A program made the translations under genes and the position numbers. A stretch of DNA of 58,458 nucleotides, counting the filler, from Jimgerdemannia flammicorona (taxonomy: Eukaryota): assembly GCA_003990765.1 (NCBI GenBank). It is 3 parts of 3 records of this genome, joined end to end, with 100 filler letters (N's around TTAATTAATTAA, not from the genome) between each part and the next. Parts side by side here need not be neighbours in the genome. Positions count along the whole stretch, not along the records: positions 1 to 19,421 come from RBNJ01001942.1; positions 19,522 to 38,942 come from RBNJ01001943.1; positions 39,043 to 58,458 come from RBNJ01001944.1. One strand, written 5' to 3'. The notes beneath the pieces were generated by a model. The model ran no database searches and was not told the DNA's origin. It saw nothing but the letters and a program-made list of their open reading frames with translations. Of this stretch, positions 6,701-52,809 are shown one piece after another (within the stretch, counting starts at the first letter, position 1; each line of letters starts with the position of its first letter).

Positions 6701-8689
6701 TGTAAGAGGGTTACTTTTTAGAGTAGCCATTATGTAGTTCTAGAAGAGTTTTCTGGAAGTTCTGGATATTCTGGAAGACTGTTTTCTTATGGTCAAGATC
6801 AATTTTGTATGGAGTACGTCCTCTATGCTTATTGATTTCAAGATCAGATTGACATCTCAACCAAAGTCCTTTTTTGGACTAGTTCTGGATGTTCACGATT
6901 TTCTGTATTTCAGGAAGTTCAAGAAACTAAGACCAGCTTAGTTGAATTAGCATATCGCTACAGACAATATCCAATTAGGAAATTTCATAATAGGGTTAGG
7001 AGTGGGACCTAGCGGGGAGCAGATTTACTTAAGAGTGGTTTGTGGGTTATTAAATAGATTTATTTGCTATTCATAATATTGCTATACTAGGAGTAGTTGT
7101 GTGAAGGAATATTATAGGGAAGTGCTCAGAAGTTGTGTTTGGATTGTTTAAGTCTTTCAAGTCTGAGATTCTGAGGTCTAGGAGAGGGGGTATTTATACT
7201 AGTGAGGGGTTATCTGGACTATGCTAGATATGGATGTAGTACTAAGTGCCTTGCTGAGTTGGAATATAGTCATGTAGTACAAGAGTGATCTGACATATCA
7301 ATAGATCATCTGACTACTAAGCTATTTATAGGTTTAGACACTGTCTGGGTAGTCTTCGATGACATCACCATCAATGATATCATCTTTGATGAAGTAGTTA
7401 TCTAGGAAAAGTGATTTGCGAATTACTTCTTTTTGTTCGTTGAGGTAATAATACATTGAAACTTCATCACCATCCCACAGAATAGCATCATCTGTCTCAT
7501 ATGCTGGATAAGGTGTTGGTGGGCAGAGGAGAGGTGTATCATCTTTGCTTTCATCAGATTCGCTGTCTGCATACCTTCTATAGGTTACAACACTATGAGT
7601 TGTAGGATTGTAGTAAGCTGGTGGCTGTGGTTCATGTCACTCATACTTGGGTGGTGGAGTGGTTGGTTCAATCTCGAGGGTTGTCTGGAGGTACAGGTTG
7701 TATTCTCCAGTTTCTTCATTGTAGTTGAAGTAATTGGGGGTGAATGTGAGTTAGTATTCATGCCAGTGGTCATTGTCTCAATAAGTCTTGTATATGGTTA
7801 TGAACTATTGTAAGTTCATTGGCAAGGTTGGTGGTGTGATCAGAGTTGGTAGAGATTCTTGGCTAGAGGTCATGTCGGCATCAGAGGGATCATTGTCTTC
7901 TACTTCATCTTTGTCAAAGTGGATTATATCATAGATATCCTTCATAGTGTATCCAACTTGGGGCATTTGCAGGATATGATCATTGGGGTGTGGGAAGGTT
8001 CTGTCTATGGTTTCGATGTACTCGAGGTACTTGTGGTTGAGTTCTTGTATCATATTGTCGATTTGGCCATAGGATAGGGTAGCAACTATTTTAGCTATAG
8101 TAACTCGGAGATAGAAAATAACAGTGCTATACTCATAGAAGAGTTCTTAGTATTTGCAGGCAATGAGTTTCTAGTGTTGAGACATCTGGGTAATGTCTGT
8201 ATCGTGATGGTATTCAACCATGTCTTCTAGGAGGTAGCTGATCTGATAGTAGCTTGAGATTTGTCCAATTCAGTGGGCCTCATTGAGCATGTTTAGGGCA
8301 TTCCATCAGGCTTCCATGAAATAGAGGGGTGCCAGGCTATGGATATTTATAAGGGGTAGAGGGAGAGTGGCTCAGTTGACAATGGCATTCCAAATGTCAG
8401 TACAGATACAGGTGTAGATCTCAGTGGTCATGTTTGTATGTTTGGAAGTTATGGTTGTTATTTGTTTTGGTTTTTCTGGTTCGATATGTCTCAGTACTCA
8501 GTATATATGTATTTGGTCCTGATTGATAAGATTCTGTTTGTATGAATTTTGTATTCTGTGACTTCATATTGACTCAGCTTTGTGCACTATGACTTCAGTT
8601 TGACTCAGTTTTGTGATCAAGCAGGTGATTTCCAGATTTGTTCAGAGGGTGATGTGTGATTTTGGTGGCTTGGAGATTATATGCTTACA
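6701..8689 (-). repeat. 3' LTR of chromovirus (1989 bp)
   Basis: Terminal inverted repeat TGTAAG...CTTACA. The PPT abuts 8689. The first ~600 bp match 15214-15826 and 54050-54660. Minus-strand TATAAATA at 7191-7198. Confidence 0.85.
7334..8431 (-). pseudogene. 365-codon accessory ORF inside LTR U3 (unknown function, acidic/Pro-rich C-terminus)
   Basis: ATG at 8431 (MTTEIYTC...) to TAA at 7334 (...VIEDYPDSV*) in one frame, with only substitution-type stops. The ORF-track piece 7805..8053 is part of it, and 5825..6094 is its paralog. Confidence 0.75.
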
Positions 8690-8690
8690 A

Positions 8691-8703
8691 CTCTCCCCTT
8701 CTT
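8691..8703 (-). promoter_or_regulatory. Polypurine tract
   Basis: AAGAAGGGGAGAG on the minus strand, 1 nt before the LTR TG. Confidence 0.8.
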
Positions 8704-9118
8704 AGCTTTTGATATCCTCATCAGGGCCTTCTAATTTTGTTCTAATGTTGTTATACTGTTTGGGAGGTCAAAAGTCTGGTGAAGTCTATTTTTCTCAGAA
8801 AGTAGCATGCTCATAGTACAGTTGCCTAATATGTTGGATTCATACGTTAAAGGATTGTGTGTTCAATGTCATACACTGGAAGTGATTCTGATGTCATTCA
8901 CTGCTGGAGAATTTTCTCTAAGGAATCTTCTTAAATGTCTATGCCTCATTTTCTACTAGTAGTACAGAGAGAATAGGCTTGCTTTCAGTTTTGCTATTTT
9001 TTCAGAGGGTCGGTATTCTTGTCTTGTTTTGCTGAGTTCTTGGTTTGGTTTGTGATAATTATAATATTTAGGAGGTATAATATATAGTGTATACTGATGA
9101 TATCAGAGTATTCAGATT

Positions 9119-12100
9119 TCAGTTGTTCAAGAAATCATATTCCTGCACTAAGTCAGTAGCATTCTGGAGATTGGTCTTGGGTTTCCAGGTTGCATCATAG
9201 ATTGGGTAACCTTTCCATTTGACAAGGTACTCAGGGTGGCTCTTGTTGCCATGTTTGTTGAGGATTTGTTCAACTTCGTATTCTTCTTGGTCATTAATAA
9301 TGACAGGTGCAGGTGGTTTTGTGGTTCGGTTTGGGAATAATTCATCATTATTGTCATTATATTGCTTGAGATATTGGACATTAAAGACTGGGTGAATCTT
9401 AATGGTGTTTGGTAGTACCAGTTTGTAGGAGGTTGGAGAGACTTATACAATAACTTCAAATGGTCCAATAAACTTGCTGTTCAGCTTCGTAGATAGTTTG
9501 TGCTTTAGGTTATCAACTTGGTAACCTTGGATGTCTAGTAGAACTTTTTCTCCAATATCAAAGGTTTCTTCTTGGCAGCATTGGTTAATATACTGTAACT
9601 GTTGTTCTTGAGCTCACAATAAGTTCTCAATTGTGATCTGGCTTAGATTATGCATTCAGAGTAGGAATTCTTCAACAGCTTCGACTGTGGAGGATTCATC
9701 AGTAGTTCGGATAAGTGTTAGAGAAGTGTTTGGGTTTTGTCCAGTATTGGCAAAGAATGGGATCATTTCAAGAAAGGCTTGCTTGCTGTTATTATAGGCA
9801 AACTCAACTGCAGTGAGGTGTTCATGCCAATCATCTTATCTGTAGGAAACATAGTTCCTTAGCATTTGTTCCAGAGTTTGGTTCATTCTTTCAGTTTGAC
9901 CATCAGTTTTGGGGTGAAAGGCTATAGATAGTGTAAGTTTTATTCCAAGGTGTGCATGAAGGGCTTTCCAAAAATGGCTGGTGAATTTTGGGTCTCGGTC
10001 ACTAACAAGGATCTTAAGAAGACCATGATAGCGGAAGATGTTGTCAAACAAGAGTGTGGCTATGTCTGGTGCTGTTGCAGTGGTAGTGGTTGGTACAAGG
10101 TGGGCTTGTTTGCTGAGATAGTCTACAAAGACAACAATTGCATCTTTTTCATTCTTGGTTTGGGGTAGTTGTATAATAAAGTCCATAGAGATTTGTTCCC
10201 AATTAGTAAATGGTACTGGAATAGAGTGGAGTAGGCCAGGTTTTGCTAGTGTTGAGGACTTATTCCATTGGCAGACATTATAGGAAGTGATATAGGTCTT
10301 GAGCTGATCTGCCATACAGGGCCAATAGAAGTTTCGGAAGATAACTTCATAACATTTATCAAATCCTAAATGTCCAGCTATAAGAGCATCATGATATTTG
10401 AATAGGATAGTCCTTCGGAGGTCTCAGTTGTTTGGAACATACAGTCTGTCCTTATAGTAGATAGTATTGTCCTTTAGTTGGTATTGATGATACTATATAT
10501 ACTTATTGGTATCATCACTATTTAGAATTTCTCAGAGTGTTTGAGCTTCCTTATCATTAGCACATGCTGCAATAATTTGCTCCATGATAGTGTTGGTAAC
10601 CAAGGTGAGAGTTTGGATAACTTCTTCAATGAGTGATCTAGAGATTGTATCGGCAATAATATTTTCCTTACTAGGGTGATACTGGATTTCATAATCAAAG
10701 TTGGTGAGGACTTTCATCCATCTGGCTTGCTTTCAAGAAAGGGTAGCCTAGGTCTTGATATTGACTAATGATTTGTGGTCAGTCAATATAGTGAAGTGTG
10801 CTCCTTCTAGATATGGTCACTATTTGATCAGAGTATCTACAATAGCTAGCATTTCCTTTTCGTGAGTTACATAGTTAATTTCGGTATCATTGAACTTGCA
10901 GGAGTGATAGGCTACAGGGTGTCCTTCTTGCATGAGTACTGTTCCAAGGACTAGGTCAGAGGTATCAGTAGTGACTTCATATAGTAGGGCAGGATTAGCT
11001 GTCTGAAGTACTGGAGTAATTATTAAGGCATCTTTCAATGCTTAAAAGGCTGTATCTTGTTTGGGTCCCCAATTTATAAGATTGTTGAAGTCTTTCTCTT
11101 GCTTCGTGGTCTAGGGCTGTTCTTCTTTCTTACTATGCTTGGTCATTTGGGTGAGAGTGGTGGTGATTTTAGCAAAGTTGGCAACAAATCACCTATAATA
11201 GTTTGCTAATCCCAGGAATGACTGGAGATCTTTCAGCTTCTTGGGTCTGGGCCAATTCTTGATTGCAGAGATTTTGCTGGGGTCCACTTTGATTCCATTC
11301 AGTGTAATAATGTATCCAAGGAATTAGATTTCCTTCAGGAGAAATTCACACTTGCTGAGTTTTGTGAAGAGTCAGTTTTCTCAGAGTTTCAATAGTACTA
11401 GTTCAAGGTGTTCAAGATGTTCCTCCAGGGTTTTGCTGAAGACTAGGATGTCATCAATGTAGACAACAACAAATTTATCCAAGTAGGGATGCAGGATAGT
11501 ATTCATCAGTATCTGGAAGGTTGCAGGAGTATTAGTTAAGCCAAAAGATATAACCAAGAACTCGAAGTGTCCATAGCAAGTTTGAAAGGCTATCTTGTAG
11601 ATGTCTTCTTCTTTCATGACAATTTGCCAGTAACTATTTCATAGATCAAAGGAGCTTATAAATTGTGGGTTGGTAAGTCTATCAAATATTTCATCAATCC
11701 TTAGTAGTGGGCAACAGTTCTTGATGGTCTGTTTATTAAGGTCATGGTAATCAATGCACATTTGCAGGTCTCCTCCTTTCTTGACAACAAAGAGGACTGG
11801 TGCACCATATAGTAATACACTGGGTCTGATGAATCCTTGTTCTAGGAGTTTGTCAATTTCTTTCTTAAGTACATCGATTTCTCTCAGAGATATATGGTAG
11901 ATTGACTTGAAGGCTGGTTTGGCATCTGAAATAGTCTTGATGGCATGGTCTACTGCTCATTTGGGAGGTAGGCCTTTTGGGAGCTTCTTTGGAAATATAT
12001 CTCAGAATTTCTGGAGTAGTGGTCTGATGCAGCTATCAACTTTGGAAAAGTTTTCTTCAGAGTTCTTGAGTTCTCCTTTGGATGAGTGGATGGAGATTGC

Positions 12101-15100
12101 AAAAAGAGGACATTTCTTAGCCAATTTCTTGAGTTGTAGCTTATTGATGTAGGTGATCTTTAGTCCAGAGTCACTAGAGTTGAGTGGGTCCTTTTTGCCT
12201 TGCAGTTTGAAGTTATGGCATCCTTTCTTGATGGTCAGAGAATGGTTTACCCAATCAATCATGGGGTTCTCTTGTTTCAACCATGGGGTTTCAAGGATGA
12301 TTTCATTGTCAGGAAGTGGTACAATTTGGAGGGTAATATGTACTTGGTAGTTGCCAATTTGGAAGGGTAGATTGCGGACCTCTTTGCTAATAATATGTGA
12401 GATTCCATCAGCTGTAGTAACTACTTGAGTTTGTTGTACAGGAGAGGTGAAGACCTTGAGTCTGTTGGCTGTCTCTTCATTGATGAAGTTGTCTGAGGCA
12501 CCACTGTCTATCATAATCTTGACAGGTGCTTGGTTGACAAAAGCTTTAAGTGTAAGCAGTTTGTCTGATCCAATGGTGGTGATTTCAGTTGTAGGAGCTT
12601 TCCTTCTATTAGTTCTTCTTTGAGCCAGTTCATTGACACAAGAGAAGCAATCATCAATCATTTGGGATGAGTATATTCCAATGCCATAGAGATATCGGCC
12701 ACTTGGTACATATCCATCTTTAATTTTCTTGTAGAATTGTTCTTCTTTGTTCGTGGTAGGTTGGATTGGAGTCTTGTTTGATGAGCTAAATCCTTTGGAT
12801 CCTTGGATGATAGGTAGTAGTTCAGGGACTTCCTTGACTGTCAGGGTTGACTCAATTTTTTCGAATAGGATCTAGGTGATGCAGAAACCAATAGGGATCT
12901 TGAAGGGTGTCCAACTGTGGTTTTGGATGAGGACAATAACTTCACCTGTATAGTCTTCGTCAATGACTCCTCCTTCTACTGAGAGTCCTTTCAATACTAG
13001 GCTGCTATGACAGTATATTCTTCCAACATATCCTTCAGGAATTTGGATACTGATTTCTGTGTAGACTTGTTTGACTTCTTAGTTGGAAACTATAGCTTCT
13101 TCAGCTACATATAGATCATATCTAGCTGCTTTTTGACTTCCTTTAGTTGGGGCCTTAGAAGTTTGTCTTAACTTGACAAAGTCCAGTATTCTGGTAGTCA
13201 GGTTGTTGAGATGGTGCAGAGTGGTAACAGTTGCTTGTGTTACTGTTCGGGGTTTTCAGTTAGGGCAGACACTGGTCATACATCCTATTTTTTGGCAATA
13301 GAAGTATGCTCCACTCCTTCGAAGTTCATTTCTTTCTCCTTTGGTGAGTTTCTTGAAGGTACTCAGCTGAGTGGATTCATAATTTCTGGGTGTCCAAGAG
13401 GTGGATATGGAGGGAGTTTAGGATGCTTCATACTTGGATTCTTCTTTCTTGGTCTAAGTCTTTTCCTTGTTGTTGAATTGTCTTTGGGGCAGAATTGGTC
13501 CAGCTGTTAGGATTCACTTGACCATAGTCTTGATTCTTGTCAGGCACTATTGTTGGTGATCACAACCAACTGGGTGGCCTTGTTCTCGGATTTTTCTAGT
13601 AAGTCATTCAGGCAGTGCATTGAATAAATGGTCTGCTCTTGTACCATTTTGTGCTTCATCATTGGCAATGTATCTTAGGCCAACAGTGTTCAGGAGTGAC
13701 TTGAGTTTTGTACAGAAGGTTTCAAATTCTTCTTTGCCATGTACATCAAATTTGAGGTTGTGGAGTTTTACTCAAGATTCAGCAATCATGGTTTTGCTGT
13801 AGTATTGAGCAATCATGAGTTGTTTGAGTCTAGGGGCTGCAGGATGAGCTCCATATCCTGGGGTATTGTTTGCTGTATTCTGTGCAACTACTGCAGGTCA
13901 GGTGTCCCATGTGAGAGGTTTTTCAGAAAGAGTTTGCCACCATTCTTCGGTAGGTCCTCAGAAGAATATAACAACTTGGTGGACATAGGCTGTAGTGGTA
14001 GCAAAGAGTTGTTCCAGAGTGTGGTCTTGATTATTTGTCAGAATGTGGTCAGCAACTTGCTCATTGGTCCATTGATTGACTTCGAAGTTGGTGTCAACTA
14101 CACTAATGAAGCTTTGGACTTCTTGTGCAGTACTATTGAAGGTAGGTAGGCTCAGATTTTTGATAGGTTGGGTCTGTTTGGTTAAGGCAGTAATGGTTGC
14201 TACCATTATCACTACCTGGGCTATAAGGTCTAAAATCTATTGGTTCGCCATATTGTTTACTGGAGGTGGTTAGACTGCTAGTAGTAGTGTTACTGGTACT
14301 ACTTGAGGTATTGGTGCAGAGTATAATGGAGTTCTTTGGGTCTATGTAAGTTGCTAGAGTAGTAGTTGTGGGTCTGGAGTGAGGGCTTGATAGATAACTA
14401 TTTGTTGCTATGTAGGTATATTCTATCCTGATGGAGGTACTTCTCCTTCAGTGGTATATCCGGGATCAAATTCACTGAGATACTCCTCCTCCTCTTTGGT
14501 TTGGTCCCTGTGTAATTGGGTTTGCTTAGTATCGAAGTAGATGGAATCAGTTGTATATCTAATTTCAGATGGACTTAATTCAAAGTCAAGTTCAGGTTCA
14601 GTGTTGGTTTCAGATCCAGATAGGGCTGTAGTAGGGCCTGCTTCAGATTTGGGGTCAGGTAGTTGATGAAGGGTTTCTCTTACTTCTTCTTTAAGAATAT
14701 GGTGGACCTTACTGTTCTGGAATCAGTAGTATAATGCAGTCTTGATCCTGGTATGGTGAAAGTCGGTAGAGTTGAGCCACTTGGCTATAGAGGCTTGGGC
14801 TTTGTGAAGAACTATGGCTAGAAAGACTGCTGCTGGTTGTCCTAGATCACTTGGATTTGTGGAGCTGACAAAACTCTTATTGAGGAGAGTAAAGAAGGCT
14901 TCAATAAGACCTTCTTCATCTTAACTTGCTGGGTGTAGTACAAGGAGTTCAGTGAATAGGGTTTCATCTATTTGCTGATTTAACTGTAGTATTTTTTTCT
15001 TCAAATGAAGTTTGTCCCACTTGTTGCAGGTGTAGAGGTCAAATTGTCCTTGTATGTCAGGTTCAATTCTCTCCAGATTGTCAGATAGTTCAGGATAAAT

Positions 15101-15199
15101 TCCAGTTCAGAGGTTGGGCTTTATACCAACTTGTAGGAATTCACAGAGGGGTTTGTAACAGAGTGAGGAAGCATCTTGAAGTAAAATTGGATTATAAAC
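9119..15199 (-). pseudogene. Single-frame gag-dUTPase-protease-RT-RNaseH-integrase-chromodomain polyprotein
   Basis: ORF pieces starting at 14212, 12661, 11617, 11038, 10717 and 10315 share a frame. Motifs: degenerate CCHC (YFYCQKIGCMTSVC), GVIDEDYTGE, IDSGAS, YIDD, TTDTSDLVLG, SMDFI/SDRDPKF/QTERMN, YEVEQIL...EYLVKWKGY. True start not resolved. Confidence 0.92.
12778..13190 (-). other. dUTPase domain between nucleocapsid and protease
   Basis: PTKGSQKAARYDL, GRIYCHSSL, GGVIDEDYTGEV, QGSKGFSSS correspond to trimeric dUTPase motifs 1, 2, 3 and 5. Confidence 0.88.
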
Positions 15200-15200
15200 T

Positions 15201-15210
15201 ACTGCTACCA
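15201..15210 (-). promoter_or_regulatory. Primer-binding site (TGGTAGCAGT, initiator-Met-like)
   Basis: TGG 3 nt downstream of the 5' LTR end at 15214. The tRNA identity is an inference. Confidence 0.7.
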
Positions 15211-15826
15211 AGTTATAAGAGGGTTACTTTTTAGAGTAGCCATTACATAGTTCTGGAAGAGTTTTCTGAAAGTTCTGGGTATTTTGGAAGACCATTTTCT
15301 TATGATCAAGATCAATTTCATATAGAGTACATCCTCTATACTTATTAATTTCAAAATCGGATTGATGTCTCAACCAAAGTCCTTTTTTGGACTAGTTCTG
15401 GATGTTCAGGATTTTCTATATTTTAGAAAGTTTAAGAAACTAAGACCAGCTTAGTTGAATTGGCATATTGCTGCAGACAATACCCAATTAGGAAATTTTG
15501 TAATGGGGTTAGGAGTGGGACCTAATGAGTAGTAGATTTACTTAAGAGTGGTTTGTGGATTATTAAATAGGTTTATTCGCTATTCATGATATTGCTATAC
15601 TAGGAGTAATTGTGTAAAGGAATATTGTGGAGAAGTGCTCAGGAGTTGTATTCAGATTGTTCAAGTCTTTCAAGTCTGAGATTCTGAGGTCTGGGAGAGA
15701 GGGTATTTATACTAGTGAGGGGCTATCTGAACTATGCTAGATATGGATGTAGCACTAAGTGTCTTACTGAGTCAAAATGCAGTCACATAGTATAAGAGTG
15801 ATCTGACATATCAAGAGATCATCTGA

Positions 15827-16012
15827 GCAAAGTGGAGGAAGGGTGGAAATGGTATTAGACAAGGTGGTCTTTTATAGGGAAGGAGTAGGGGGGAGGGGGC
15901 CCCCTAGGGGGATCGGATAGGGGGTGGGATTACTGTAATTATATGGGATAGATGGGTGTAATAAAGGAGAGGAGTCCAAGTGACTATAAAAAAAAAAAAA
16001 AAAAAAAAAAAA
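15827..16012 (+). mobile_element. Short 5'-truncated LINE 3' end with poly(A)
   Basis: Similar to 5490-5663; AATAAA, GAGTCCAAGTGACTAT and A25. Confidence 0.85.
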
Positions 16013-19421: not shown

Positions 19422-19521
19422 NNNNNNNNNNNNNNNNNNNNNNNNNNNNNNNNNNNNNNNNNNNNTTAATTAATTAANNNNNNNNNNNNNNNNNNNNNNN
19501 NNNNNNNNNNNNNNNNNNNNN
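19422..19521. other. Artificial contig-joining spacer
   Basis: 44 N + TTAATTAATTAA (stops in all six frames) + 44 N = exactly 100 nt; identical to the second spacer. Confidence 0.97.
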
Positions 19522-37679: not shown

Positions 37680-38218
37680 CTCTGATAATACCGTCCAAAA
37701 GATGATGATTTACGAATGCAGTGGTGAATAGGCGCCAGTAAATGACGCTACATCAGACGGAGTATAGTATGCCAGCATGAGCAGTCGTACCGTATTTCTC
37801 GCAGGGGTTTGTAGTTGTGGAGGAATAGCTATATATATGTTTGCTAGTGTGGTTCCGAGATGCCGAGATTAATCACAATCACATGCACTAGAGGGGTGAA
37901 TAACTGCACAATCTACAAGATATCCACGATCAATTCATCTCATTAACTACATTGTCGTGTAACCGAGTTCAAAAGCACAAAGGTATACGAATTAGTCATA
38001 ATTATATGAACATAGTAATTGGAACAACTAGATGAACACAAGGATAATCAGAACAATACATAGCCCACATCCGAGGGCGGCTTTTGTGGAGTTGGAAAAT
38101 ACAAAGGTTCGATTGCGTCACCTATCCTAGACCGAACGCTTAATTGGCCAAAAAGCCACCAAGTCGCGCGTGACTTTGATGACGTAGCCATTCCAGACTC
38201 TCTGCGCCACCTCGCCAA

Positions 38219-38942: not shown

Positions 38943-39042
38943 NNNNNNNNNNNNNNNNNNNNNNNNNNNNNNNNNNNNNNNNNNNNTTAATTAATTAANN
39001 NNNNNNNNNNNNNNNNNNNNNNNNNNNNNNNNNNNNNNNNNN
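38943..39042. other. Artificial contig-joining spacer
   Basis: Same 100-nt N44-TTAATTAATTAA-N44 structure. Confidence 0.97.
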
Positions 39043-39267
39043 ACTATCACTTTTTATTACTGTCACTCTCTATTACTACTTTCTATTATTATTTTCTATT
39101 ACTACTCTATTATCTTTCTCTATTACTACTCTCTATCTCTATTACTCTTAGTAAGTAATCTCTATCCTCACTCTATAAATCATTTAGTTAGAAATTTGTA
39201 ATATTTTTTATTATTTTCTAATAATGTTTTAATATTTCTCAGTATTATATAATTATACTTTATATAG

Positions 39268-39732
39268 TGTAATGGTATAGCCAGATTTGGAAGAAGGAAA
39301 TAGGGAATAGACACTTGATCGCACCCAGTCCCAAAGTAGTATAGCTACATAGTTAGTAGTCCTCGATTTTGCCACTTGCTAAATATTTCACAAAGTGCGA
39401 GATCAAGCTTCTTGATATAATATAGTATTTCACAACTGGCAAAATATTTTACAAAGTATTAAATGACTCATAACTTAGCCACATAACCTAGTAACTATCT
39501 CATAGCTAGCAAACTTGTATAAATAACCCAGTATCTTCAAGTAAATAAACCTCAGATCGAAATAGTTCAAGCAAAGAGATAGCAAAGGAACTAGTAAGCC
39601 TGTGGGCAGATATACTTTGAACTCACCCACCCTCCCCTGCAACTCAAAGGACTCTGAGAAGTTAGAGAAGATCAAGTTTTCAAGATACAGAAATCTGACA
39701 TACTTTCAAGAGTAAGCATCCACTACATTACA
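39268..39732 (+). repeat. 5' LTR (465 bp)
   Basis: TGTAATG...CATTACA; TATAAATAA at 39518 and AATAAA; matches 47938-48406. Confidence 0.92.
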
Positions 39733-39846
39733 ACTTGGTGCCCATTGGCTGGTGATTCAAGATGAATCCCTCACTTTTAAGCTAAATAATGAACAATCAT
39801 CCCTACCTGAACAACTATACAAACTGAGCCCCAATACCCAGATAAG

Positions 39847-42800
39847 ATGGATATGAGACCACCAGTATTCCATGGATATATCTCAGATGAATCAATCATC
39901 ACCTTCATTGATGATTTCAAGCAGTATGCTACTGTAAGGACCCTGACAGCAGCACAGCAAGTAGCCCTCATGCCCTTCAGCCTATGAGGTCCTGCCAGAG
40001 CAGCATTCACAGCCACAACCTATGCAGGAAATGATACTGATACTATACTGACAGCACAGAAGACCTGGCTCTGAAATACATATTATACAGATGAGATCAA
40101 GCAAGCCCTGAAGAATCAGCTCAATATAATATACCAAGGAATAAGCAAGGATCCAAACACATTCTATACCAGAATTCGATATCAGATAATTCTTGCAGAT
40201 TATGCTGCTGCTATCCGAGATCAAGTAGCCGAAGCAATCTTCATGAAAGGAGTCCATCCAGAAATAGCCATGACCATCTGCTCATCACTAGTGATTCTGG
40301 ATCTGCCATAAAAGGTCACCTATGCTCAGCAATACTGGATAGCCAGACACCCACAAGACCATATAATGGAGAGAGTTACAGGAGTCAGAATCAAGGCACC
40401 TAAGTCAACCAGTGTGATCTCTACCACAATGATCAATCGAAACACACCTCAGCCCAAAGCTACAGAGCAGCAAAAGAACAGTGACCCTTTGGAGGAACTT
40501 ACCAAGAGGTTTGTGGAAATGACTGCCCACTTGGAGGATGTAGTAAAGGAGATCAGAGGAAGAGATTGCTGCCCTGTCCAGAAGTTTGCTGCCACCTCAG
40601 ACAAGAAGAAAGGCATCTGCTATACTTGCAGAGAAGAAGGCCACTACTCCTATGAATGTATGAGCGAAACCAAGTGTAAGACTCAACCAAGCAATACTAT
40701 ATGAAACAAGGAGCAGGCCAATACAATTACCTTCAAGGAAATTGGATATTCTGATGAAGAAGAATGGGAGGCCTATCTTGCTCAGACTACTAAGAAGGAT
40801 GTTCACAAGGAACCCTACAAGAGACCACCAGGAAGACCTAAGAAGAACCCAGTAGAAAAGTAGATGGAAATGGCTACTGAAAGCCAAGCTGAAGAGATGG
40901 ACCAAGATATGGAGCTGGAATAAGCAGTTCAAGATATTATCTGAGAAACTACCCCAGCCAGTGAAGGAGAAAAAGAAAAGAAACTTCACAAGACTAAGAC
41001 TTTCAAGTATGATATCTTCAAGGATCTTAGCCAATAAAAGGTCAATACAACCTTTGGTCAGCTTGCAGAAATCCCAACATTTAGATAACAAATGAGGTTT
41101 GGACTTGCCAAAACAACCAAGGAGCAAGGATGGAAGATAACTGAGGCCAATGACATTCAAGAGGACTCAGGAGAAGAAAGTGAAGATAATCGCAAAACCT
41201 CTGCCTATGCTACCTGCCAGATTGAGGACTGAGTCTTTGAAGCCATCATCGATATGGGAGCAGGAGGATATCTCATCACTAAGAAAGCAGTAGACTGCCT
41301 AGGCTGGGAGATAGAAGAAGCCACCAAATTAGTATTTGTTACAGCTGATAGAATATAAGCAATACCTCTGGGAAAGATCTGGGATGTACCCATCAAGTTT
41401 GGAGAAGCCACTATCCTGGTAGATGTCATCGTCACCAATGCAACCAACTATGATATCCTCATTGGCAATCAATAGCTTCACAAAGCCAAGACAATGATCA
41501 ATCTCAGTGCACAGAAGATGCAAATCATCTACTGGGGAAAGAAGATCAGAATTCCCATCAATGTCCACAAAGGAGTCTGCCCGGAAATGGAGAAAGAGCA
41601 AGAAGAAGAAGCCTACATAATTACCATGAAGAAAGAAAAAGATAAGCAGTGGATAGAAGAAGAATGGTACAAAAGGATCGCAGATGGATATGCCCCACTA
41701 GGAAGGTGCCCCCATGGTGAAAGAATATACTATACCCAACACTTGGATTGCTGCTACTCCTGCATCATCAAAGTAAAAAAGATCTCCAACAAGCCAAAGA
41801 AAAACCAGGAGGAACCAGAAGATGGACCACCAGAGCTATTAAATGACAGCAATGATGAAGAAGACATCATAGTCAAGATGTGAAGGATCCATCCTGATGT
41901 AGTCTTGCCATAATATAAATCAGAGAATACAGCAGGAATGAACCTATCTACCACAACACACACAATCCTCAAACCACAAACCACTACTATGCTGGGAACA
42001 GGAATTGAAGTAACCATCCTACCAAATCATATCAGAATCCTCAAGACAAGGAGTAGCTTGGTGAAAAGTGAAATATCCATAGAAGGAGAAGTCATTGATT
42101 CAGACTATATAGGAGAAATCCTCCTCCTCACCAGGAATCATAATCCAACAATCACATTTGAAGTAAAGAAGAAGGATCAGCTGGTACAAATGCTCATCCT
42201 ACCTGTCTTTAACCCAAGAATCAAGGAAGTTGCAAATATCAGACAAACTCAGTGAGGAAGAGCTGTATTTGGCTCTATAGGAAGAGGAGTCCTCACAATA
42301 ACCAAGATTACAAAATTGGAGCACAAGAAGGAGGAAAGCCAAGACAAATACATTTATGTAATCAGAAAGAACTTTCCCCTCAGGAAGGAGTTGCAAAACC
42401 TCTTGCATATATTTGAAGATGTACTGGCCACAGATTTCAAGGACATCAAGACTAAGAAACCCTTGTACTATTATGACATCAATACTGGAGATGCAAAACC
42501 AATCTATCAAAAAGCCCACCCCATTCCGCCAGCATACAGGGAATGGCTCAAGACTAAAATCAAGGAAATAGAGGAATCTGGTATCATCAAGGAAGCCAGC
42601 AGCCCTTGGTCTTCACCTATTGTCCTTGTACCAAAGAAAGAAAGCCAACCAGGAGAATTTGTACCAAGACTCTGCACAGACTATAGAAGACTCAACAAGG
42701 TCACAGAGAAGGATAGACAACCATTGCCCAATATTGGTGACATTCTTATTATATTGGGAAATAAATCACAATTTTACACCACTCTGGATCTGTTCTCAGG

Positions 42801-43803
42801 ATTCTACCAAATTGGCCTTACACCTGAAGCCAGTAAAAGATCAGCCTTCATCACTCCTGATGGAACCTATATCTATCTCTGCATGCTCTTTGGAATGTGC
42901 AATGTACCAACAAGCTTCTAAAAAATGATAAATAGTATCTTTAGGGATGTTATGGAAAAATGGATGATGGTATATATAGATGATGTGATTATCTTCAGCC
43001 AAACAGCCAAGGAGCACTTGGAACATATTGAGGAAATCCTCAGAAGGCTTCACAAAAATGGCCTCTACATCAAGCCCAAGAAATGCAAATTTGGAGAAGA
43101 AGAAATTGCATACCTCAGACACATTATCAACAATAAAGGAATATACACAGATCCCACAAAGATCAAGGCAGTAGCAGCATACCCAGTACCTACCATTGTC
43201 ACTGAAGCCTGAGCCTTCATGGGACTAGTATCCTATTACAGGAGATTTATTCGAAGATACTCTCACATTGCCAGCCCTATCTATGATCTGTTCAGAAAAG
43301 AGATCAAGTTCCAGTGGACACAACAACAGCAACTAGCCTTTGATGAACTCAAGATCAGGCTGACCCAGGCCCCAATCTTGAGAAGATCTAACTGGACATG
43401 AGAATTTATTCTATAGACAGATGCCAGTGCAATGGGACTTGGAGCTGTCCTTGTACAGAAGAAGAATGGTGCCAAGTATGTAGTAGCCTATCTCAGCTGA
43501 GGAACTCATAGAGCGGAGTAGTCCTATGAGTCATACAAGCTAGAATGTCTTGCAGTTATCTGGGCTGTAGAGAAGTTCCACTATTACCTGGTGGGAAGAT
43601 ACTTCACCATCCAGACAGACCACTCAGCACTTACCTGGTTGCTCACCATCAGTGAACCCAAAGGAATCTATGCCTGATGGATCATGAAGCTGCAAGCATA
43701 TGATGCCACAATCACTCACTGCCCCAAAAGAACCAATGCCAATATCAACACCCTCTCATGAATACCCCAAAGGACCCCACTCCCACAAAATCACCATGAA
43801 TAG
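39847..43803 (+). pseudogene. gag-protease-dUTPase-RT-RNaseH polyprotein
   Basis: One frame: RPPVFHG, CYTCREEGHYSYEC, AIIDMGAGG, dUTPase, SPWSSPIVLVPKK, RLCTDYRRLN, YIDD, TDASAMGLGAVL, TDHSAL. Start is approximate. Confidence 0.92.
41870..42282 (+). other. dUTPase domain between protease and RT
   Basis: SENTAGMNL, KTRSSL, GEVIDSDYIGEI, DQLVQMLI, (R)GRAVFGSIG. Confidence 0.87.
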
Positions 43804-44147
43804 GGAGCTGTACTATGGAATCATCAGCTACCTGGGGCAGCAAAAGATGCCCCCACATCTGGAAGAATGGACAAAAACAATTATTAATCAGACATGGAAA
43901 CAATTCAAAACTGATGGAGAAATACTCAAGAAAGGACAACAATTAGTTATCCCTGAGCACCAGAAGAATCAAGTAATGAAAGAAGTACATGAACAAGGCC
44001 ACATAGGAGGAACAAATATATTGTGATGTCTACAATTGACCCTATCCAAATTCGGAGTACCCTGTGACCACAAGATCAGATGACATTATGGTGCAATAAC
44101 TGGTGACCAGCCCAATCTGTCAAGTGATTTCACCAAAAGAAGACAAG

Positions 44148-45218
44148 ATGACCCGAGCCAAAATGAAGACCACATTATTTAAGGAACCCTACTCCGCCTC
44201 AAGGATCGGCACCAAAGAACCAAGTACCCACCACATAATGCCTCCTATTCGCCGAACCAACCAGACCTCCCGCCGCTCTATCCCTTTGCCTGGCCCAAAG
44301 ACCCTGATCTTTGAAGCTATCAAGAAGGCCATCTGGCGCCCAGATACTTCCAAACACTTGAACTTCTACACTGAGGACCTTGGACACTTCATCAACTACT
44401 GGTATATAATGACCCAACAGCTCAAAGACACTACCGAATGAATGACCCTCTGGCATGACTACGAAATTGGACACCGCCTTCGCAATGAGACTCAAGAAGG
44501 CAACCAGGAAGACCTCATTGCCGAAATGTTAACCACCAGCCGGCTAATCAAGAGAGCCCTCCATGTCCATCAAATCTTCCGCCATATTCCCTGGGCTATA
44601 GCACACTTGCAAGGAGTAACAGTTGGTAGCCTCTCCCGCCTATCAACCGAAGATGCTGACTGGATAGAATCTGAAGTAGCCAATGCTATTGGCAGCAACT
44701 GCATTGCCGTAGGAAGCCAACAAACCAAACCTACTCAACCAGGTTTCCACACCACCCCACTCCAAGACAACCATCAAGGTCACTTAATGAGTCTTATGGA
44801 GATATTTGAAGGACTGCCCATCACTATAGAGACACCCATTGGAGCTACCCCAACCACCCACCACCCTGTCAGCTATAATTCACACCTCATCATTTGGGAA
44901 CCAAATCAAGAAGAAGCCCAAGAAGTTCCTGTCTTTGAAGAGGAGACCCAAGAACTCCAAGACTCTGCCCCTGAGGAAACCCCCTCTGATACTGAAACTG
45001 ACGAAGAAGAACAAGAGGAGCAACAGAGAGTCTACCAGTCCTCTGTCCACATTCAAGCTGTTCAAGGGTTGGAGAATGTTGTTGAAGATGACTGGCCACT
45101 TTTCTACCCCCTCACCTCTTGGCCAGCGCTTTCCCCTTTTGAGGAGAGATATGATGAAGAAGAAATCGCAACCCAGCAAGATTTGCCCACCGCGGACGAA
45201 TGGTACTATTCCCTCTAG
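44148..45218 (+). pseudogene. 356-codon accessory ORF in U3 of the solo LTR (one internal TGA at 44439)
   Basis: ORFs 44103..44441 and 44442..45218 are in frame. Core HDYEIGHRL...ALHVHQIFRHIPWAIAHLQGVT, followed by an acidic tail. Confidence 0.8.
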
Positions 45219-45227
45219 AGTACCACC

Positions 45228-45552
45228 CATCAGCCATGAGAACCAAGCTTTTAGTCAGCATCCGTTTTCAGCGTTGCTACCCTCCACAACCATTTCTGGC
45301 AACAATCAGTAATTTTGTCAGCTCATCTGAATCCAGCGTTGCTACCCAGTACTACCGTTTTCAGCATTTTGTCAGCATGTCCGTTTTCAGTGTTGCTACC
45401 CTCCACAACCATTTCTGGCAACAATCACCGCATCCATATCCGTCCATGTCAGCAAGTCAGCAAGTCCAAATCCAGTGTTGCTACCCAGCACAACCGAATC
45501 CAGCGTTACTATCCAGTGCAACCGTTTTCAGCATCTTGTCAGCAAGTCAGCC
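45228..45552. repeat. Imperfect tandem repeats in solo-LTR U3 (CCGTTTTCAGCGTTGCTACCC-type units)
   Basis: Near-duplicate ~52-bp blocks at 45257-45308 and 45373-45426, plus partial units. Confidence 0.8.
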
Positions 45553-47438
45553 CTTCACATCATGCAAGCCAATAGCATAGCTTGCCACAACATAGTATAC
45601 CTTAGCCTTAGTCACGCCCCCTCATAGCTAGCAAACTTGTATAAATAACCCATATTCTTAGAGTGAATAAACCTCAGCCAGATAGTTTTACAGAGAAAAC
45701 ACACTACCTCCAAGAGACCAGATAAATTCTGAGAACAAGATAACCTAGAGCAACGGATTGCTCGGAAGTTTGAGTTAAAGAATTTTCTCTTGCCACGGAA
45801 AGAAAGAAAACGTTCAAGACCCGCCGCTAAGGAAAGCCGCACTAGACCGCCAATTTTGCCACCACAAAAAGTATTCAAGACCAGACCACCATTCGGATCA
45901 CCATTCGGACCGCCATTCGAGACCCGAGACCCAGCTAAGGATTCAAGACCAGACCGCCATTCGGACCGCCACCATTTGACCGCCATTCGAGATTCAAGAC
46001 CCGGAAAACCCAGAAACTCAAGGATACCAGTACAAGACCCGCCAGCTAGCAAGAACAACTGCCAAAGACCCGAACGACCGCCAGGAAACCTTTCAAGTTA
46101 ACCAAGACGGACGAGCGAGCCGTCAACCTCCGCTTCTCCGATTCCTGACCTACTGCGCCACGGACCACTTTAATTGACCACATAAAGAGCAAGCCCATTG
46201 TCGCCACATAAATTCAAGTTCACCACCCTTATCCACTAAACAATTGAGCCATTGACGTCCTGAGCCGTTGAACAACCAAACGTCCCCTGAGCCAACGAAC
46301 AATCGAAGTCCCGCTATTATCAGTTATCGCACGAATTGAATGAGCTGATCACATGACCATCGACTCGTAACCGCCGCGAACGTCACCAACGCATTCAGTT
46401 ATCCATCGCGCGCTTCACCAAGTGGCATACATTGAGCCATGCAGTCAAAGTTCATTATATATATAACCAACGTCACAATATATAACAAAGCAAGAAGAAC
46501 CATGTAGTGGCCTGGAATGGAAGAAGATATCAGACAATTCATCAGAACCTGTGACAAATGCCAGAAATAGAAATAAGATCAACAAAACCAGGCTCTGGGA
46601 TCAGCATACATAAAACCAGTACCATTTACCCACATAGCAATGGATGTAATTGGCCCTCTACCCTTGACCCTAACTGGTAATTGATATATCATTGTCATCA
46701 TAGACCTTTTTACAAAGTGGATAGAAGCAGGACCCCTCAAGGAAGCCAATGTACAGTCAATCGCTGATTTCTTTCACAAGAAAATCATCTGCCAGTTCAA
46801 GACCCCAATACAAGTAACTACAGATAGAGGAATAGAATTCATGAACCAACTCTTTGAGGTTCTCTACAAGAAGTACAAGATCCAGCACATTTGGACCACA
46901 GCCTATCACTCCCAAGAAAATGGACAAGCAGAAAGGACCAACAAGACCCTCAAGAATGTTATCACCAAGATCTGTGATAACTATGAAAACTGGGATCACT
47001 ATCTGCCAATAACATTATCTGCTCTCTAGGATATCAGATCACAAAGTACCCACTTTACCCCCTGGGAGATACTGTTTGGAGAAGAAAGTTCTAGTAGAAG
47101 TTTGTCAGCAAATAATAACACAGTCTGGAAGCATGTGGACACAGAGATATGAAGATTACATCAAATTAGGAAAAAGGCAGAGGATTACATAATCAAGGCA
47201 TAGACACTATAATGAAGCAATGCGGAAAAGATCCACAAGCCCCTGGAGATTATTAAGATAGGAGATGAAGTCCTGGTATACCAGAACATAGTAGAAGCTT
47301 CTTGGTCATGAAAACTGAAACCCAAGTAAGAAGGACCTTACCTGGTGCAAGATATAAAAGGGACCACTTTCTGACTACAAAAGCCCTCAGATACAATAAT
47401 CCCCACCACCATTCACCGAAACTGACTCAAGAAATATC

Positions 47439-47900
47439 ATGGCCAGTAACAAAAGTACTGTGATGGTACTTAAGATCACTAGCACTGCCCAAAGAGCCAT
47501 TGAGAGACAATGGCATACCACCAAGCCTCTGACCATAGAGGAGTCTTATGATAGTATCCAAAGTATTGTACAGACTCATCTCTCTCGAATCTCACACTTC
47601 AAGGCCTATCAGCATTGAAATGAATTTCAAGAGTACTTCAAACTTGGCCAAGTACTCAACCAAGACTCAGAAATGACTAAAGAAAATTGGATCGTGGAAT
47701 GCCAGCTCTCTTATTCCCAGATCACTATTGCTAAGAGAATCTACAAGCTATTCTGAGAGGATGAACCAGCACTAGCCCACCTGCAAGGAGTGACTCCCTC
47801 AGACTTTGACTGAGTCAGACGATACCATTGGGAAACAGTAATGCAACAAATTGCACAATATAAGACCATACAGACCATTGAAGCCTGGGAGTTTGAATAG
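47439..47900 (+). pseudogene. 153-codon extra ORF between integrase and PPT
   Basis: MASNKSTVMV...EYFKLGQVL...IAKRIYKLF*EDEPALAHLQGVTPSDFD*V...AWEFE*. The three internal TGAs are consistent with CGA>TGA. Not shown in the ORF track. Confidence 0.78.
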
Positions 47901-47937
47901 ATGCTTCAAGGATGAGATCATCTATTCAGGAGGAAGT

Positions 47938-48406
47938 TGTGATGGTATAGCTAGATTCGGAAGAAGGAAATAGGGAACAGACACTTGATCGCACCCAGTC
48001 CCAAAGTAGTATAGCCATATAGTTAGCAGTTCTTGACTTTGCTATGTACTTGCTAAATATTTCACAAAGTGTGAGATCAAGCTTCTCAATATAGTATAGC
48101 ATTTCGCAACTGGTAAAATATTTCGCAAAGTGTTAAATGACTCATAACTTAGCTATATAACCCAGTAACCATCTTATAGCTAGCAAACTTGTATAAATAA
48201 CCCAGTATCTTCGAGTGAATAAATCTCAGATCGAAATAGTTCAAGTAAAGAGATAGCAAAGGAACTAGTAAGCCTGTAGGCAGATATACTTCAAACTCAC
48301 CCACCCTCTCCTGCAACTCAAAGGACTCTGAGGAGTCAGAGAAGATCAAGTTTTCAAAATACAGAAATCCGACATACTTTCAAGAATAAGCATTCACTAT
48401 GTTATA
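47938..48406 (+). repeat. 3' LTR (469 bp)
   Basis: Matches 39268-39732; terminal CA mutated to TA. Confidence 0.92.
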
Positions 48407-48482
48407 ATAGTAATTATGATAAAAAATACTAACAATATCTAAGTTCTTGGAAATTTTATCAAAAATACACTCTGATATATAG

Positions 48483-49600
48483 TGTAACAACTTCTTTAAA
48501 ACTAGTGATATCAGAATTCAGAAGACTACCTTAACTTCCTAAGCCACTAGTTGCAAGTTATAACTTAACTATGACTTATTTTGATCAGAAGATGATCTGT
48601 ATCTAAACTCATAATGACTCATAATGAGCTCAATAATATACTACCCTAAATCAGATAACTTTACTCTCTGGACTAAAGAAGAAGACCCTCAAGATATAAA
48701 AGAAGTATTAAGAGAAGAAGTATAAAGTATTAACTATAAATAAGAGCCTTACTATAAAACAAAATATCTGTTATCTGCTAAACAGTAAGGTCAAGGAGCT
48801 ACCCAGATCTATCAGTTCAAGAATAGATATTTACTGATATCAAGAGAGCAATGAGGTTATATATAAGAAGAGCCTTTAGTCTGAACCTCTACACAAGTGA
48901 TCCCTATCAATATACTCTCAACTGTTAAGAAATAAAGACAAGAATTATCATTGCTGCTGAGTATCTTTAGATGTAGCAAGAATATGAGATGAGATATCAT
49001 CTCTATCAAGAAATTGAGGATACTACTTATATGGATAGTTATGAATAAAAATTGACCAAAAGAGTTTATCAGATCTTCAGACATATATCCTGAGTCATCC
49101 TCAATCTAGAATATGTCAAAGTCTCTGATATTTAAGAATTGATAAGCTGCTATATAGACTACCTTGAAGAAATAGTTACAGAAGAGGCCCAATCTACTAT
49201 TACAGTTAAGAGTAATGAGATTTAAGATCTTTGAAACCCTATCCTAGAGGACAATTTAGACTAATTAATTTATAGTTTAATTGTGCTATTTCAAGGCCCT
49301 CCCTTGAGAGTCTACTACCCCCAGAATTTCACAGATATTCCTTACTATATAGATGATCTCACTATTAACTAGAGACCTTAAGAGTAGAATTACCTTATAT
49401 CCTTTGAGGATATCACTCCCTCAGACAACTTGGAGAATGATAGCAAACTATTTATTTTATTAAAAGGTGATGTCAACAACTTCTTTTCCTCATTCCCAGA
49501 GCCTCTTACTGACTTCAGTACAACTATAAAGAATGTAGAAAATTATTTGACTAGACTCTCTAAAGAAAATGAGGAGAAGAATGAGATTGATATAATTTCA
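48483..49600 (+). mobile_element. Heavily degenerate LTR-like fragment with accessory-ORF homolog
   Basis: Starts TGTAAC; KRVYQIFRHIS*VILNLEYVKVSD at ~49058-49130; right boundary uncertain. Confidence 0.6.
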
Positions 49601-49947
49601 GTTATATTGAATTTAAGTTATATAAGGATAACTCTATTAACTAAATTAAGTAAGTTAGTTAGTTGTACAAATAGTGACTATATATTAATTAGCCAAATTT
49701 ATTATAAATATAAAATTAGCCTTATTCAGTTAGTTAGTCACCTAAATTCCAAAAGTATGCTAAATAGTATCTTTTAGTAATTATGAGTTCAACTAATTAC
49801 TTAGTATTATATATAGCTAGTGCTCTGAATGAGTTGATCTGGATCAGATTCAAATCTCATTCAGATCAACTTGAATGAGATTCAAATCCTATCCAAATTA
49901 ATTCAAATTAATTATTGTTTTGATTTTCAAATTAGACAATTAAATAT

Positions 49948-51050
49948 TGTAATAGTGATCTCAGAATAGTAATATCATCATAGAAGACAGTCTTCCTTAT
50001 AAGCTACCAGATCAGAGTACAAGAAGATTATAACTCACCCAGACTACAAAAATGAGCAATTATGATATATCATGAGTTATGATGACCACAAGATAGACAT
50101 CTCAAAGAATATAAAAGAAATACTAAGAAACTACAGTAGTAGTAACTCAAACAAGACTTACAAAATCCTAAAATAGTTCAAAAGACTCACTATAAATAAA
50201 ATATCTGCCACTTATCAAACCTCAAGGTCCAGAAATTATCAAGACCTTTTAGTTTAAAAAAGAATATTCCAAGACATCAGGAGAGCCATGAGGACTTACA
50301 CTAGAAGAATTTCTAGCCTCAATCTGGATACTAGTGACCCTTATCACTTTACTCTCTATTGCCATAAAATAGAGAAAAAGATCACTACTGCTACCAAATG
50401 CCTCTGGATATGGCAGGAATATAAAATAGGAAACCTCCTTTGCTGAAAATTCTCTCAGACCAGTCCCTAAGAGATATAAGATGATACCTCTATAGATATA
50501 TATGAATTGAAAGTAGTCAAAAATATCCATCAGATCTTTAGACATATACCTTGGTCAATTCTCAACTTGGAGTATATCAAAGTCTCAGACTTCAAGAAAT
50601 TGTCAGCCCACTGCACAGATGCACTAAAAGCCATAGTGGCCATAGAAGCCCAATCCATCATTACTCTCAAAAGTAATAAGATAGAAGAGTTCTGAAATTC
50701 CATCCTCTAGGACAATCCAGATCAATTTCTATAAGGATTAATCTCAGTATTCTAAAGCCTCAGTATTTAGATCAGACCTCCTCAAGATCTCACCTTTGTT
50801 TCCTACTTTATGGTAAAAAATATAATAGATTAGAGAGCCTCTAATTTCCTTACCACTACTGCTAAATATGATAACATCATCATCAATGATATGTATTATC
50901 CTACTAATTGACATATGTGAAATAAATAAAATGTTTACAGAAATGCTCGCTGACCTTATTTTCTTCAAAGATATTCCATTCCTAATCTCTAGCCTTGATG
51001 ATAGTGATGAAGATGAAGTCTTGAGAATTTTGAACATTCTATTCTAATTT
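49948..51050 (+). mobile_element. Second degenerate LTR-like fragment with accessory-ORF homolog
   Basis: Starts TGTAAT; KNIHQIFRHIPWSILNLEYIKVSDFKKLS at ~50519-50610; acidic tail near 51000; boundaries approximate. Confidence 0.62.

Positions 51051-52764: not shown

Positions 52765-52809
<45 letters not shown>

Follow-up and report, generated by a model that had tools for sequence, protein, structure and literature searches.

Analysis of a 58,458-nucleotide stretch of the Jimgerdemannia flammicorona genome (assembly GCA_003990765.1; three parts of three records joined end to end, hereafter referred to as the window) revealed four copies of a gene encoding an unnamed protein family. The explanation that we prefer, with some reserve, is that the family is the 3′-terminal accessory gene of one chromodomain-less, dUTPase-bearing lineage of Ty3/gypsy long terminal repeat (LTR) retrotransposons, and that its product acts on DNA or chromatin in the way proposed below. 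Earlier inspection of the window alone (the sequence-only reading) had led to the proposal that Ty3 elements carry an accessory protein family not yet characterised. This proposal is supported by the analysis, no Pfam family being assigned to the protein, and all peptide strings quoted in it were found in the window, each in its place and on its strand.

Four related copies of the family

The open reading frames (ORFs) of the family, with the segments matched over the helical core by a family hidden Markov model (HMM), are as follows; el2 is the retrotransposon described in the next section.

44238-45218 (+): family ORF of the 325-amino-acid type, 78% identical to the intact 325-amino-acid database protein P0001; HMM match 44238-45173, 1.2e-114
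47439-47900 (+): family ORF of el2, a bare core, 153 codons long, that contains 3 internal stops; HMM match 47469-47867, 1.1e-9
48794-49640 (+): decayed copy 1, core 48794-49348, with tail remnants of the ...LISFED... and ...VILNL... motifs; HMM match 48806-49399, 8.9e-72
50240-51047 (+): decayed copy 2, core 50240-50815, with a frameshift and the tail end ...SLDDSDEDEVLRILNILF followed by a stop; HMM match 50234-50893, 7.3e-86

The first ORF contains one in-frame stop, at 44439-44441. When the product of 44148-45218 was compared with the window by tblastn, it matched 50264-50815 (27% identity over 190 amino acids, E 2.7e-13) and 48794-49348 (26% over 202 amino acids, E 2.6e-6). The match to the el2 ORF, at 47637-47795, was weak (33% over 54 amino acids, E 0.024; 0.003 in the reverse direction). 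Membership of this post-integrase ORF was therefore judged with an HMM built from 15 family rows, its own row being left out. The ORF matched HMM positions 14-145 with an independent E-value (i-E) of 1.1e-9 and 26.8 bits. Alignment of the ORF with the family by hhalign gave 76.1% and E 2.3e-5, and BLASTP against P0012, an independent database member, gave 3e-6. Its score of 38.1 bits compares with a shuffle maximum of 10.9, none of 2000 shuffles reaching it. Judging from these sequence comparisons, 44238-45218, 48794-49348, 50240-50815 and 47439-47900 are truly related, beyond chance. Six related copies had been counted in the sequence-only reading; four of them stand by tblastn, HMM and hhalign, and the other two, which belong to a chromovirus, gave no significant match (see below).

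All four copies are in sense orientation and lie either at the 3′ end of LTR-element sequence or in a unit that splits an integrase gene. Decayed copies 1 and 2 share 63% DNA identity over 581 bp, and their G+C content is just 30-35%. Both copies, at 48.8 and 50.2 kb, are AT-rich and count as dead members of the family. Comparisons of their flanks in search of LTR ends reached z scores of about 3 at best.

The host element el2

The element that carries the 47439-47900 ORF consists of the following parts.

39268-48407 (+): el2, Ty3/gypsy LTR element, with paired LTRs, primer-binding site (PBS), polypurine tract (PPT) and gag-pol order
39268-39733 (+): 5′ LTR, 90% identical to 47938-48407, with ends TGTAATG...CATTACA
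39735-39748 (+): PBS-like TTGGTGCCCATTGG, directly after the 5′ LTR
40312-47432 (+): decayed gag-pol, from Pfam, tblastn against the chromovirus pol, and frame translations
41914-42252 (+): dUTPase (Pfam, 3.1e-15), between the protease-like stretch and the reverse transcriptase (RT)
42256-43209 (+): RT, with RNase H then on to about 43758
46685-47026 (+): integrase core, followed by an SH3-like C-terminus; the zinc-binding region is split by an insertion
47938-48407 (+): 3′ LTR, pairing with the 5′ LTR

With its TG..CA paired LTRs, PBS, PPT and a gag (zf-CCHC), protease, RT, RNase H and integrase series, el2 is a Ty3/gypsy element. The full order of its domains is zf-CCHC, protease-like stretch, dUTPase, RT, RNase H and integrase. 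The Pfam scan covered 127 of the 166 stop-free ORFs of at least 80 amino acids in the window, the 39 others mostly overlapping long Sacsin frames or other listed ORFs. No match to the chromodomain (PF00385) was found in el2 among the scanned ORFs; a decayed remnant could escape such a scan.

Translation past the SH3-like end of the integrase leads to the pol stop and then to the accessory ORF, with nothing between. The ORF begins just past the pol stop and ends 37 bp short of the 3′ LTR, from which it is separated by PPT-like AGGAGGAAG, itself followed by TGTGATGG. It precedes the polypurine tract and hence is internal to the element. A post-integrase position of the family, as suggested earlier, is supported. 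On the element RNA the family gene is sense-oriented and always lies between pol and R.

Several further observations concern el2. A stretch of the chromovirus at 13138-12908 (-), upstream of its protease, is 32% identical to the el2 dUTPase over 77 amino acids (E 3.9e-7), so that dUTPase-like sequence is present in both LTR elements, but at different places. A further el2-type LTR core was found at 19830-20060 (-); it contains CAACTTGTATAAATAACCCA and, ~190 bp on, AGAGTGAATAAATCTCAG, which seem to be parts of a single promoter/poly(A) block interrupted by a short insertion. This core has no family ORF next to it. Differences between the el2 region 43500-48500 and contigs of two sequencing runs, X1 and X2, are mostly transitions, of which A or T in the window copy against G or C in the others is the commoner kind (counts in X1: A>G 60 and T>C 78 vs G>A 38 and C>T 50). 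The A/T excess fits C-to-T decay of the window copy of el2.

Relatives in databases and metagenomes

A word-index search retrieved three close relatives, including the intact P0001 (325 amino acids, 78% identity), and a profile search among 1.84 billion representatives retrieved 12 proteins at E≤1e-3, 6 of them at E≤1e-10. Intact public relatives include ORFs of 214, 247, 286 and 342 amino acids, and a 291-amino-acid ORF comes from a metagenome contig, L001. Identity of the relatives to the first row of alignment A3 is 19-56%. The family set used here comprises P0001, P0005-P0007, P0010, P0012, P0013/P0015 and the window copies. A metagenome scan with alignment A4 gave 338 pattern matches, one of which, L001, was confirmed; a scan with P0001 gave 586 pattern matches and 0 confirmed loci. 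L001 has AGGAGGGAGG and TGTAAT after its ORF stop; we read these as a PPT and an LTR-like start and infer that the ORF is probably internal in this element too. The family ORF region is multi-copy, being present at 80-99% likeness on numerous short contigs of two runs from two studies.

P0001 matched 0 Pfam-A families at E≤10. When 16 alignment rows were submitted to Pfam, 5 families were matched, each by one row only.

Database members come from small contigs, some 1-1.5 kb in length, on which no pol is visible, and a scan for longer forms found none fused or pol-linked among 5,339 candidates, which is weak evidence. Both results would be expected of a host gene family, or of a captured host gene fragment, that happens to neighbor retrotransposons in repeat-rich surroundings and takes no part in their life cycle. 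Such an origin is at odds with the sense orientation and location of the four window copies (3′ in LTR-element sequence or in the integrase-inserted unit), with the PPT and LTR-like start that follow the L001 ORF stop, with the multiple copies of the ORF region in two samples, and with the decay of 3 of the 4 window copies alongside their elements. We regard it as very improbable.

A 2,456-bp unit with the ORF in its presumed U3

The ORF of the 325-amino-acid type lies in a unit inserted in the el2 integrase gene.

44022-46477 (+): insertion of 2,456 bp, with ends TGTGATGT...ACGTCACA and target duplication ATAT
45246-45548 (+): tandem repeats, downstream of the ORF and upstream of the TATA block, enhancer-like in position
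45621-45687 (+): TATAAATA and AATAAA block, 85.5% identical to 39499-39567 and 48173-48241

The unit interrupts the H2C2 zinc-binding motif of the integrase. It has inverted TG..CA ends (TGTGATGT/ACGTCACA) and ATATAT on its flanks. In two contigs of run X2 the left flank is connected straight to 46480; since these contigs show the empty site, the target duplication is ATAT. Uninterrupted copies of el2-type integrase are thus present in X2, which is another sample. Local alignment of the TATA/AATAAA block to the el2 LTR reaches 45586-45701 with a z score of 19.7, and a 20-mer from the TATA block has 4 matches in the window vs 0.01 expected. From this likeness, the promoter and R of the inserted LTR are placed at the block.

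The unit has no terminal direct repeats and contains no el2-type PBS, and no Pfam domain was found in its scanned stop-free ORFs. Its first 20 bases have no second copy in the window, with up to 3 mismatches allowed. No sequence after the ORF resembles the first 219 bp of the unit (z -0.1), nor does the stretch after the el2 integrase (score 28, shuffle mean 26.4).

The simplest reading takes 44022-46477 as a solo LTR, from a related family, that holds the ORF in U3. Inverted TG..CA ends, a target duplication, an empty site and promoter and poly(A) signals inside the unit are combined with the lack of an el2-type PBS, gag, pol and terminal direct repeats. The solo-LTR assignment made earlier for the 44148-45218 region agrees with these features. 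Because the ORF starts 216 bp after the first base of the unit, it falls in the presumed U3. The LTR-borne version of the protein has the long acidic, proline-rich tail that had been ascribed to it, as do database versions. Three points speak against a U3 location: it depends on one copy, metagenome scans having given no locus of this subfamily; the implied R-U5 of about 800 bp is long; and in el2 and L001, the two cases with a readable junction between ORF end and LTR start, the ORF is internal.

The same unit could instead be an internally deleted element that consists of a few bases of a 5′ LTR, the ORF and a 3′ LTR of ~1.1-1.2 kb, in which case the ORF would be internal in all lineages and LTR-borne in none. 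Such a layout would agree with el2 and L001, where the ORF directly precedes a purine tract and a TGT(A/G)AT LTR start, and with the location of the tandem repeats and TATA block, all downstream of the ORF. However, neither a purine tract nor a TG start follows the ORF stop at 45218. Moreover, as the first 20 bases of the unit have no second copy and its first 219 bp are unlike all sequence after the ORF, any piece of 5′ LTR retained would have to be shorter than about 15 bp. An internally deleted element is therefore rather unlikely, and a solo LTR remains our reading of the unit.

Architecture and predicted fold of the protein

The family protein starts with a short N-terminus that contains several arginines (MPPxRR...). 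A helical core of ~140 amino acids follows, with the motif Y-E-I-G-x-x-L...A-K/R-K/R-I/V-H/Y-Q-I-F-R-H-x-P...L-x-x-V, and most members end in a tail of 100-170 amino acids that is strongly acidic and rich in proline. An AlphaFold2 model from 16 alignment rows had a mean predicted local distance difference test (pLDDT) score of 78.7 and a predicted template-modelling (pTM) score of 0.70. In it, 10-residue blocks across positions 71-160 scored 89-97 and were all helical. An earlier model from 6 rows (pLDDT 36.8) was unusable.

Foldseek searches of PDB and BFVD with the model gave no match at E≤0.001, a sequence-profile search of PDB chains gave 0 matches at E≤10, and the ESM Atlas gave no lead (best feature score 0.82, structure TM≤0.39). 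In a further structural alignment the top matches of core 72-158 were four DNA-binding domains of the ParB superfamily, from VirB (3w2a/3vwb), SopB (3mkw) and ParB (7bnk), at 10-20% identity. All of them cover the contiguous core. Their scores are below the level at which the tool is meaningful for helical proteins, and the likeness is therefore taken as a lead only. In contrast to ParB superfamily members, the family has no PDB profile match (E≤10), no ParB or helix-turn-helix Pfam match and no ParB N-terminal CTPase domain.

No membrane segment was found in 8 family members, the highest 19-residue Kyte-Doolittle mean being 1.07. In four of the six tailed members (P0001, P0005, P0007 and the L001 ORF) the tail has a net charge of -18 to -28 and 10-12% proline. 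The truncated tail of P0006 has a charge of -6 and 15% proline, and that of P0012 is near neutral. As modelled, the family protein is soluble and consists of a folded helical core and a disordered acidic tail.

At the C-terminus a conserved motif was observed in which a run of acidic residues leads into (A/T/Q)-P-hydrophobic-hydrophobic-L-N-(F/I)-(L/T), in many cases with D-L-I-(S/T/I)-F ahead. P0005, P0007, P0009 and the L001 ORF carry this motif, and in the window it was seen at 49590-49640 and 50990-51047. It looks like a short docking motif.

ORF3 of the neighboring chromovirus

A second LTR element of the window also carries an ORF after pol.

6700-15826 (-): chromovirus, LTRs 89% identical, with protease, RT, integrase and chromodomain
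15213-15826 (-): 5′ LTR, then PBS TGGTAGCAGTAG
about 6700-7318 (-): 3′ LTR, 89% identity to the 5′ LTR over 614 bp
9122-9442 (-): chromodomain (PF00385, 3.5e-15), which defines the element as a chromovirus
7334-8431 (-): ORF3, with 9 internal stops, between the chromodomain and the 3′ LTR
5663-6698 (-): second, fragmentary ORF3 copy; ORF3 part 6698-5828 and the first ~88 bp of the LTR (5752-5663)

The second ORF3 copy abuts the poly(A) of a long interspersed nuclear element (LINE) and has a frame shift near 6443; a second, partly deleted chromovirus copy starts at 54052. The stop of ORF3 (7334-7336) lies about 15 bp before the first base common to both LTRs. This junction of ORF3 end and LTR start was found again at 5752 and 54738-54816, and the chromovirus 5′ LTR is preceded by unrelated sequence and not by ORF3. 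ORF3 is therefore internal, 3′ of the chromodomain, and the label of chromovirus LTR previously given to 8431-7334 is wrong. An intact database relative of 247 amino acids, P0004, is 61% identical to ORF3 and lacks its N-terminal part. Both ORF3 and P0004 contain an acidic run followed by TP(L/I)...PPTPYPAY, placed like the end motif of the family. Thus, the chromovirus carries a 3′ accessory ORF with an acidic tail.

The two ORF3 copies are 80% identical to each other over 205 amino acids. Neither matched the helical core of the family profile significantly. The best tblastn match of ORF3 to the other four copies had E 3.0 and was a 15-amino-acid acidic stretch, profile-profile comparison by hhalign gave 1.1% and 1.3%, and the family HMM gave i-E 1.3 and -3.1 bits. 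Every significance test run indicates that ORF3 is a separate protein, its kinship to the family being very remote at best. The inclusion of the chromovirus ORF in the family, as well as a gene shared or exchanged among different Ty3 lineages, had been put forward in the sequence-only reading. The first is not supported by the profile-profile and HMM results. The second finds no support, since all demonstrable members belong to one lineage, that of non-chromodomain Ty3 elements whose LTRs have a common promoter block.

Several results nevertheless point the other way. The N-terminal 140 amino acids of ORF3 alone score 7.7 bits, which just 1 of 2000 shuffles reached, and the alignment is colinear and in the register that had been proposed by eye. 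In a background control of 5,730 sliding windows, covering all six frames of the window, the ORF3 copies (7.0-7.8 bits) were at the very top of the background, together with an unrelated stretch of the Sacsin gene (7.6 bits). This rank and this register leave some probability of remote kinship. If ORF3 were a remote member, the gene would be common to chromodomain and non-chromodomain Ty3 elements by descent or exchange. Its location (a sense-strand ORF between pol and the 3′ LTR) and its build (a helical N-terminal part, then an acidic, proline-rich tail) are those of the family. Further, the N-terminal part aligns colinearly by both hhalign and HMM (HMM positions 7-140 vs 8434-8039), both chromovirus copies ranked top among non-family windows, and the tails have in common a short stretch in which acidic residues are followed by TP/WP-L. 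Against kinship stand the insignificant hhalign, HMM and tblastn values given above and the Sacsin-gene stretch that equals ORF3 in the control; residue shuffles, moreover, take no account of helical periodicity or composition runs. A rank at the top of the background is also to be expected, because the ORF3 stretch had been picked by eye in the same window. No better ORF3 profile could be built, since P0004, its only database relative, lacks the N-terminal part. We consider remote membership of ORF3 possible but on the whole unlikely, and the broader idea, that Ty3 lineages have this gene in common, is not supported and should not be restated until better data are available.

Other features of the window

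Self-comparison and the Pfam scan revealed that the window is a nest of retroelements around one host locus. The remaining features are listed below.

1756-5663, 16012-about 19400 and 51279-52808 (+): LINEs, with endonuclease and RT matches and poly(A) ends
20600-29722 (-): very large Sacsin/BTB gene, adjoined by a decayed paralog at 32346-37828 (-)

The LINE copies (1-6000, 16000-18000 and 52000-54000) have a sense-strand GC skew of +0.38 to +0.49 at 47-53% G+C; the LTR elements have an A-rich, G-poor sense strand, opposite to the strong G-over-C excess of the LINEs. At the Sacsin/BTB locus, very long open frames (1,354 and 1,445 codons) matched Sacsin domains and BTB; the two look like one large host gene. 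The decayed paralog is 78-86% identical to it at the DNA level. A short frame at 30915-31178 (+) matched the DSS1/SEM1 family with 31.7 bits vs a Pfam cut-off of 32.2 and may be an exon of a small host gene. Paired runs of 44 N, 12 bases apart, occur at 19422-19521 and 38943-39042 and represent masked or gap sequence; the second pair lies 225 bp upstream of the el2 5′ LTR.

Discussion

The preferred explanation, a 3′-terminal accessory gene of a chromodomain-less, dUTPase-bearing Ty3/gypsy lineage, suggests how the gene might be transmitted and how its product might act. If the gene lies within U3 of the 44022-46477 unit, it would be copied into both LTRs, since a gene located behind the first base of the LTR is part of U3. 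As the polypurine tract sets the 5′ edge of U3, the difference between an internal gene and one in U3 would follow from the location of the tract, which in the unit's lineage may have shifted upstream of the gene. The protein would be made from a subgenomic or reinitiated message and enter the nucleus. There the helical core, whose modelled fold weakly resembles the ParB/VirB helix-turn-helix, would bind DNA or chromatin, and the acidic tail would recruit host factors and so help a chromodomain-less element in its transcription or targeting. The protein may function as a DNA- or chromatin-binding adaptor or transactivator. The pointers to a possible transactivator or anti-silencing role are the weak ParB/VirB fold likeness and the acidic tail; the core itself is near neutral (pI 5.3-7.2) and not basic, a point against the preferred explanation.

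It would be a more far-reaching proposition that a fungal-type Ty3 lineage carries in U3 a gene for a DNA-binding transactivator or anti-silencing factor, built of a ParB/VirB-like helix-turn-helix core and an acidic tail for activation or recruitment, with ORF3 a remote member of the same family. We think it improbable. If it were true, a DNA-binding gene inside U3 would make every LTR, solo LTRs included, a potential copy of the gene.

Additional genes of Ty3 elements have been described in several groups. Bdelloid rotifer elements contain varied ORF3s, some of them common to different retroelement types (PMC5408684). In Novikova et al. 2010 (PMC2864245), fungal elements are drawn with an 'add. 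ORF' of unknown function, and the position of the dUTPase is seen to vary in fungal Ty3 elements, including a position between protease and RT. Boty elements of Botrytis have a brtn gene (PMC8365987). The family resembles Ty3 ORF3s in being an extra gene beyond gag and pol, located at the 3′ end, of unknown function and lineage-specific. It differs in having no sequence or Pfam link to a described ORF3; with the 'add. ORF' of PMC2864245 the comparison is by description only. Unlike env-like ORF3s, the family has neither a membrane segment nor a Pfam family, and because it has no membrane segment its protein is not an env. The family ORF is on the sense strand, whereas brtn is called antisense in the reference list of PMC8365987. 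The dUTPase of el2 lies between protease and RT as in PosPlaTy3-5 of Postia placenta (PMC2864245). The two are likened by this position alone: PMC2864245 covers chromodomain elements, and the scan of el2 revealed no chromodomain.

If 44022-46477 is a solo LTR, its sense ORF after pol within U3 would recall a retroviral arrangement. The sag gene of mouse mammary tumor virus (MMTV) and lentiviral nef lie in or overlap U3 of the 3′ LTR. These are genes of vertebrate retroviruses, whereas the host of the family is a fungal-type retrotransposon, and P0001 is set apart from Sag and Nef by the absence of Pfam-A (E≤10) and BFVD fold (E≤0.001) matches. A text search of the literature for ORFs within retrotransposon LTRs gave no matching report among the matches listed. 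Judged from sequence, the gene would be of a known kind but its family new and unnamed, and the LTR-borne variant is unusual and as yet unproven.

Extra genes of LTR retrotransposons are known, but few have a function assigned, and coding genes inside LTRs are rare outside vertebrate retroviruses. If one lineage has the gene in U3 and another has it ahead of the LTR, a move of the polypurine tract would be enough to make an internal gene LTR-borne; if true, this would be a simple route to an arrangement of the sag/nef type. Should ORF3 prove to be a remote member after all, the gene would represent an old accessory module spread across Ty3 lineages. With a confidently predicted fold, no named relatives and intact members in several public data sets, the family is a testable candidate for how Ty3 elements that lack a chromodomain handle host chromatin.

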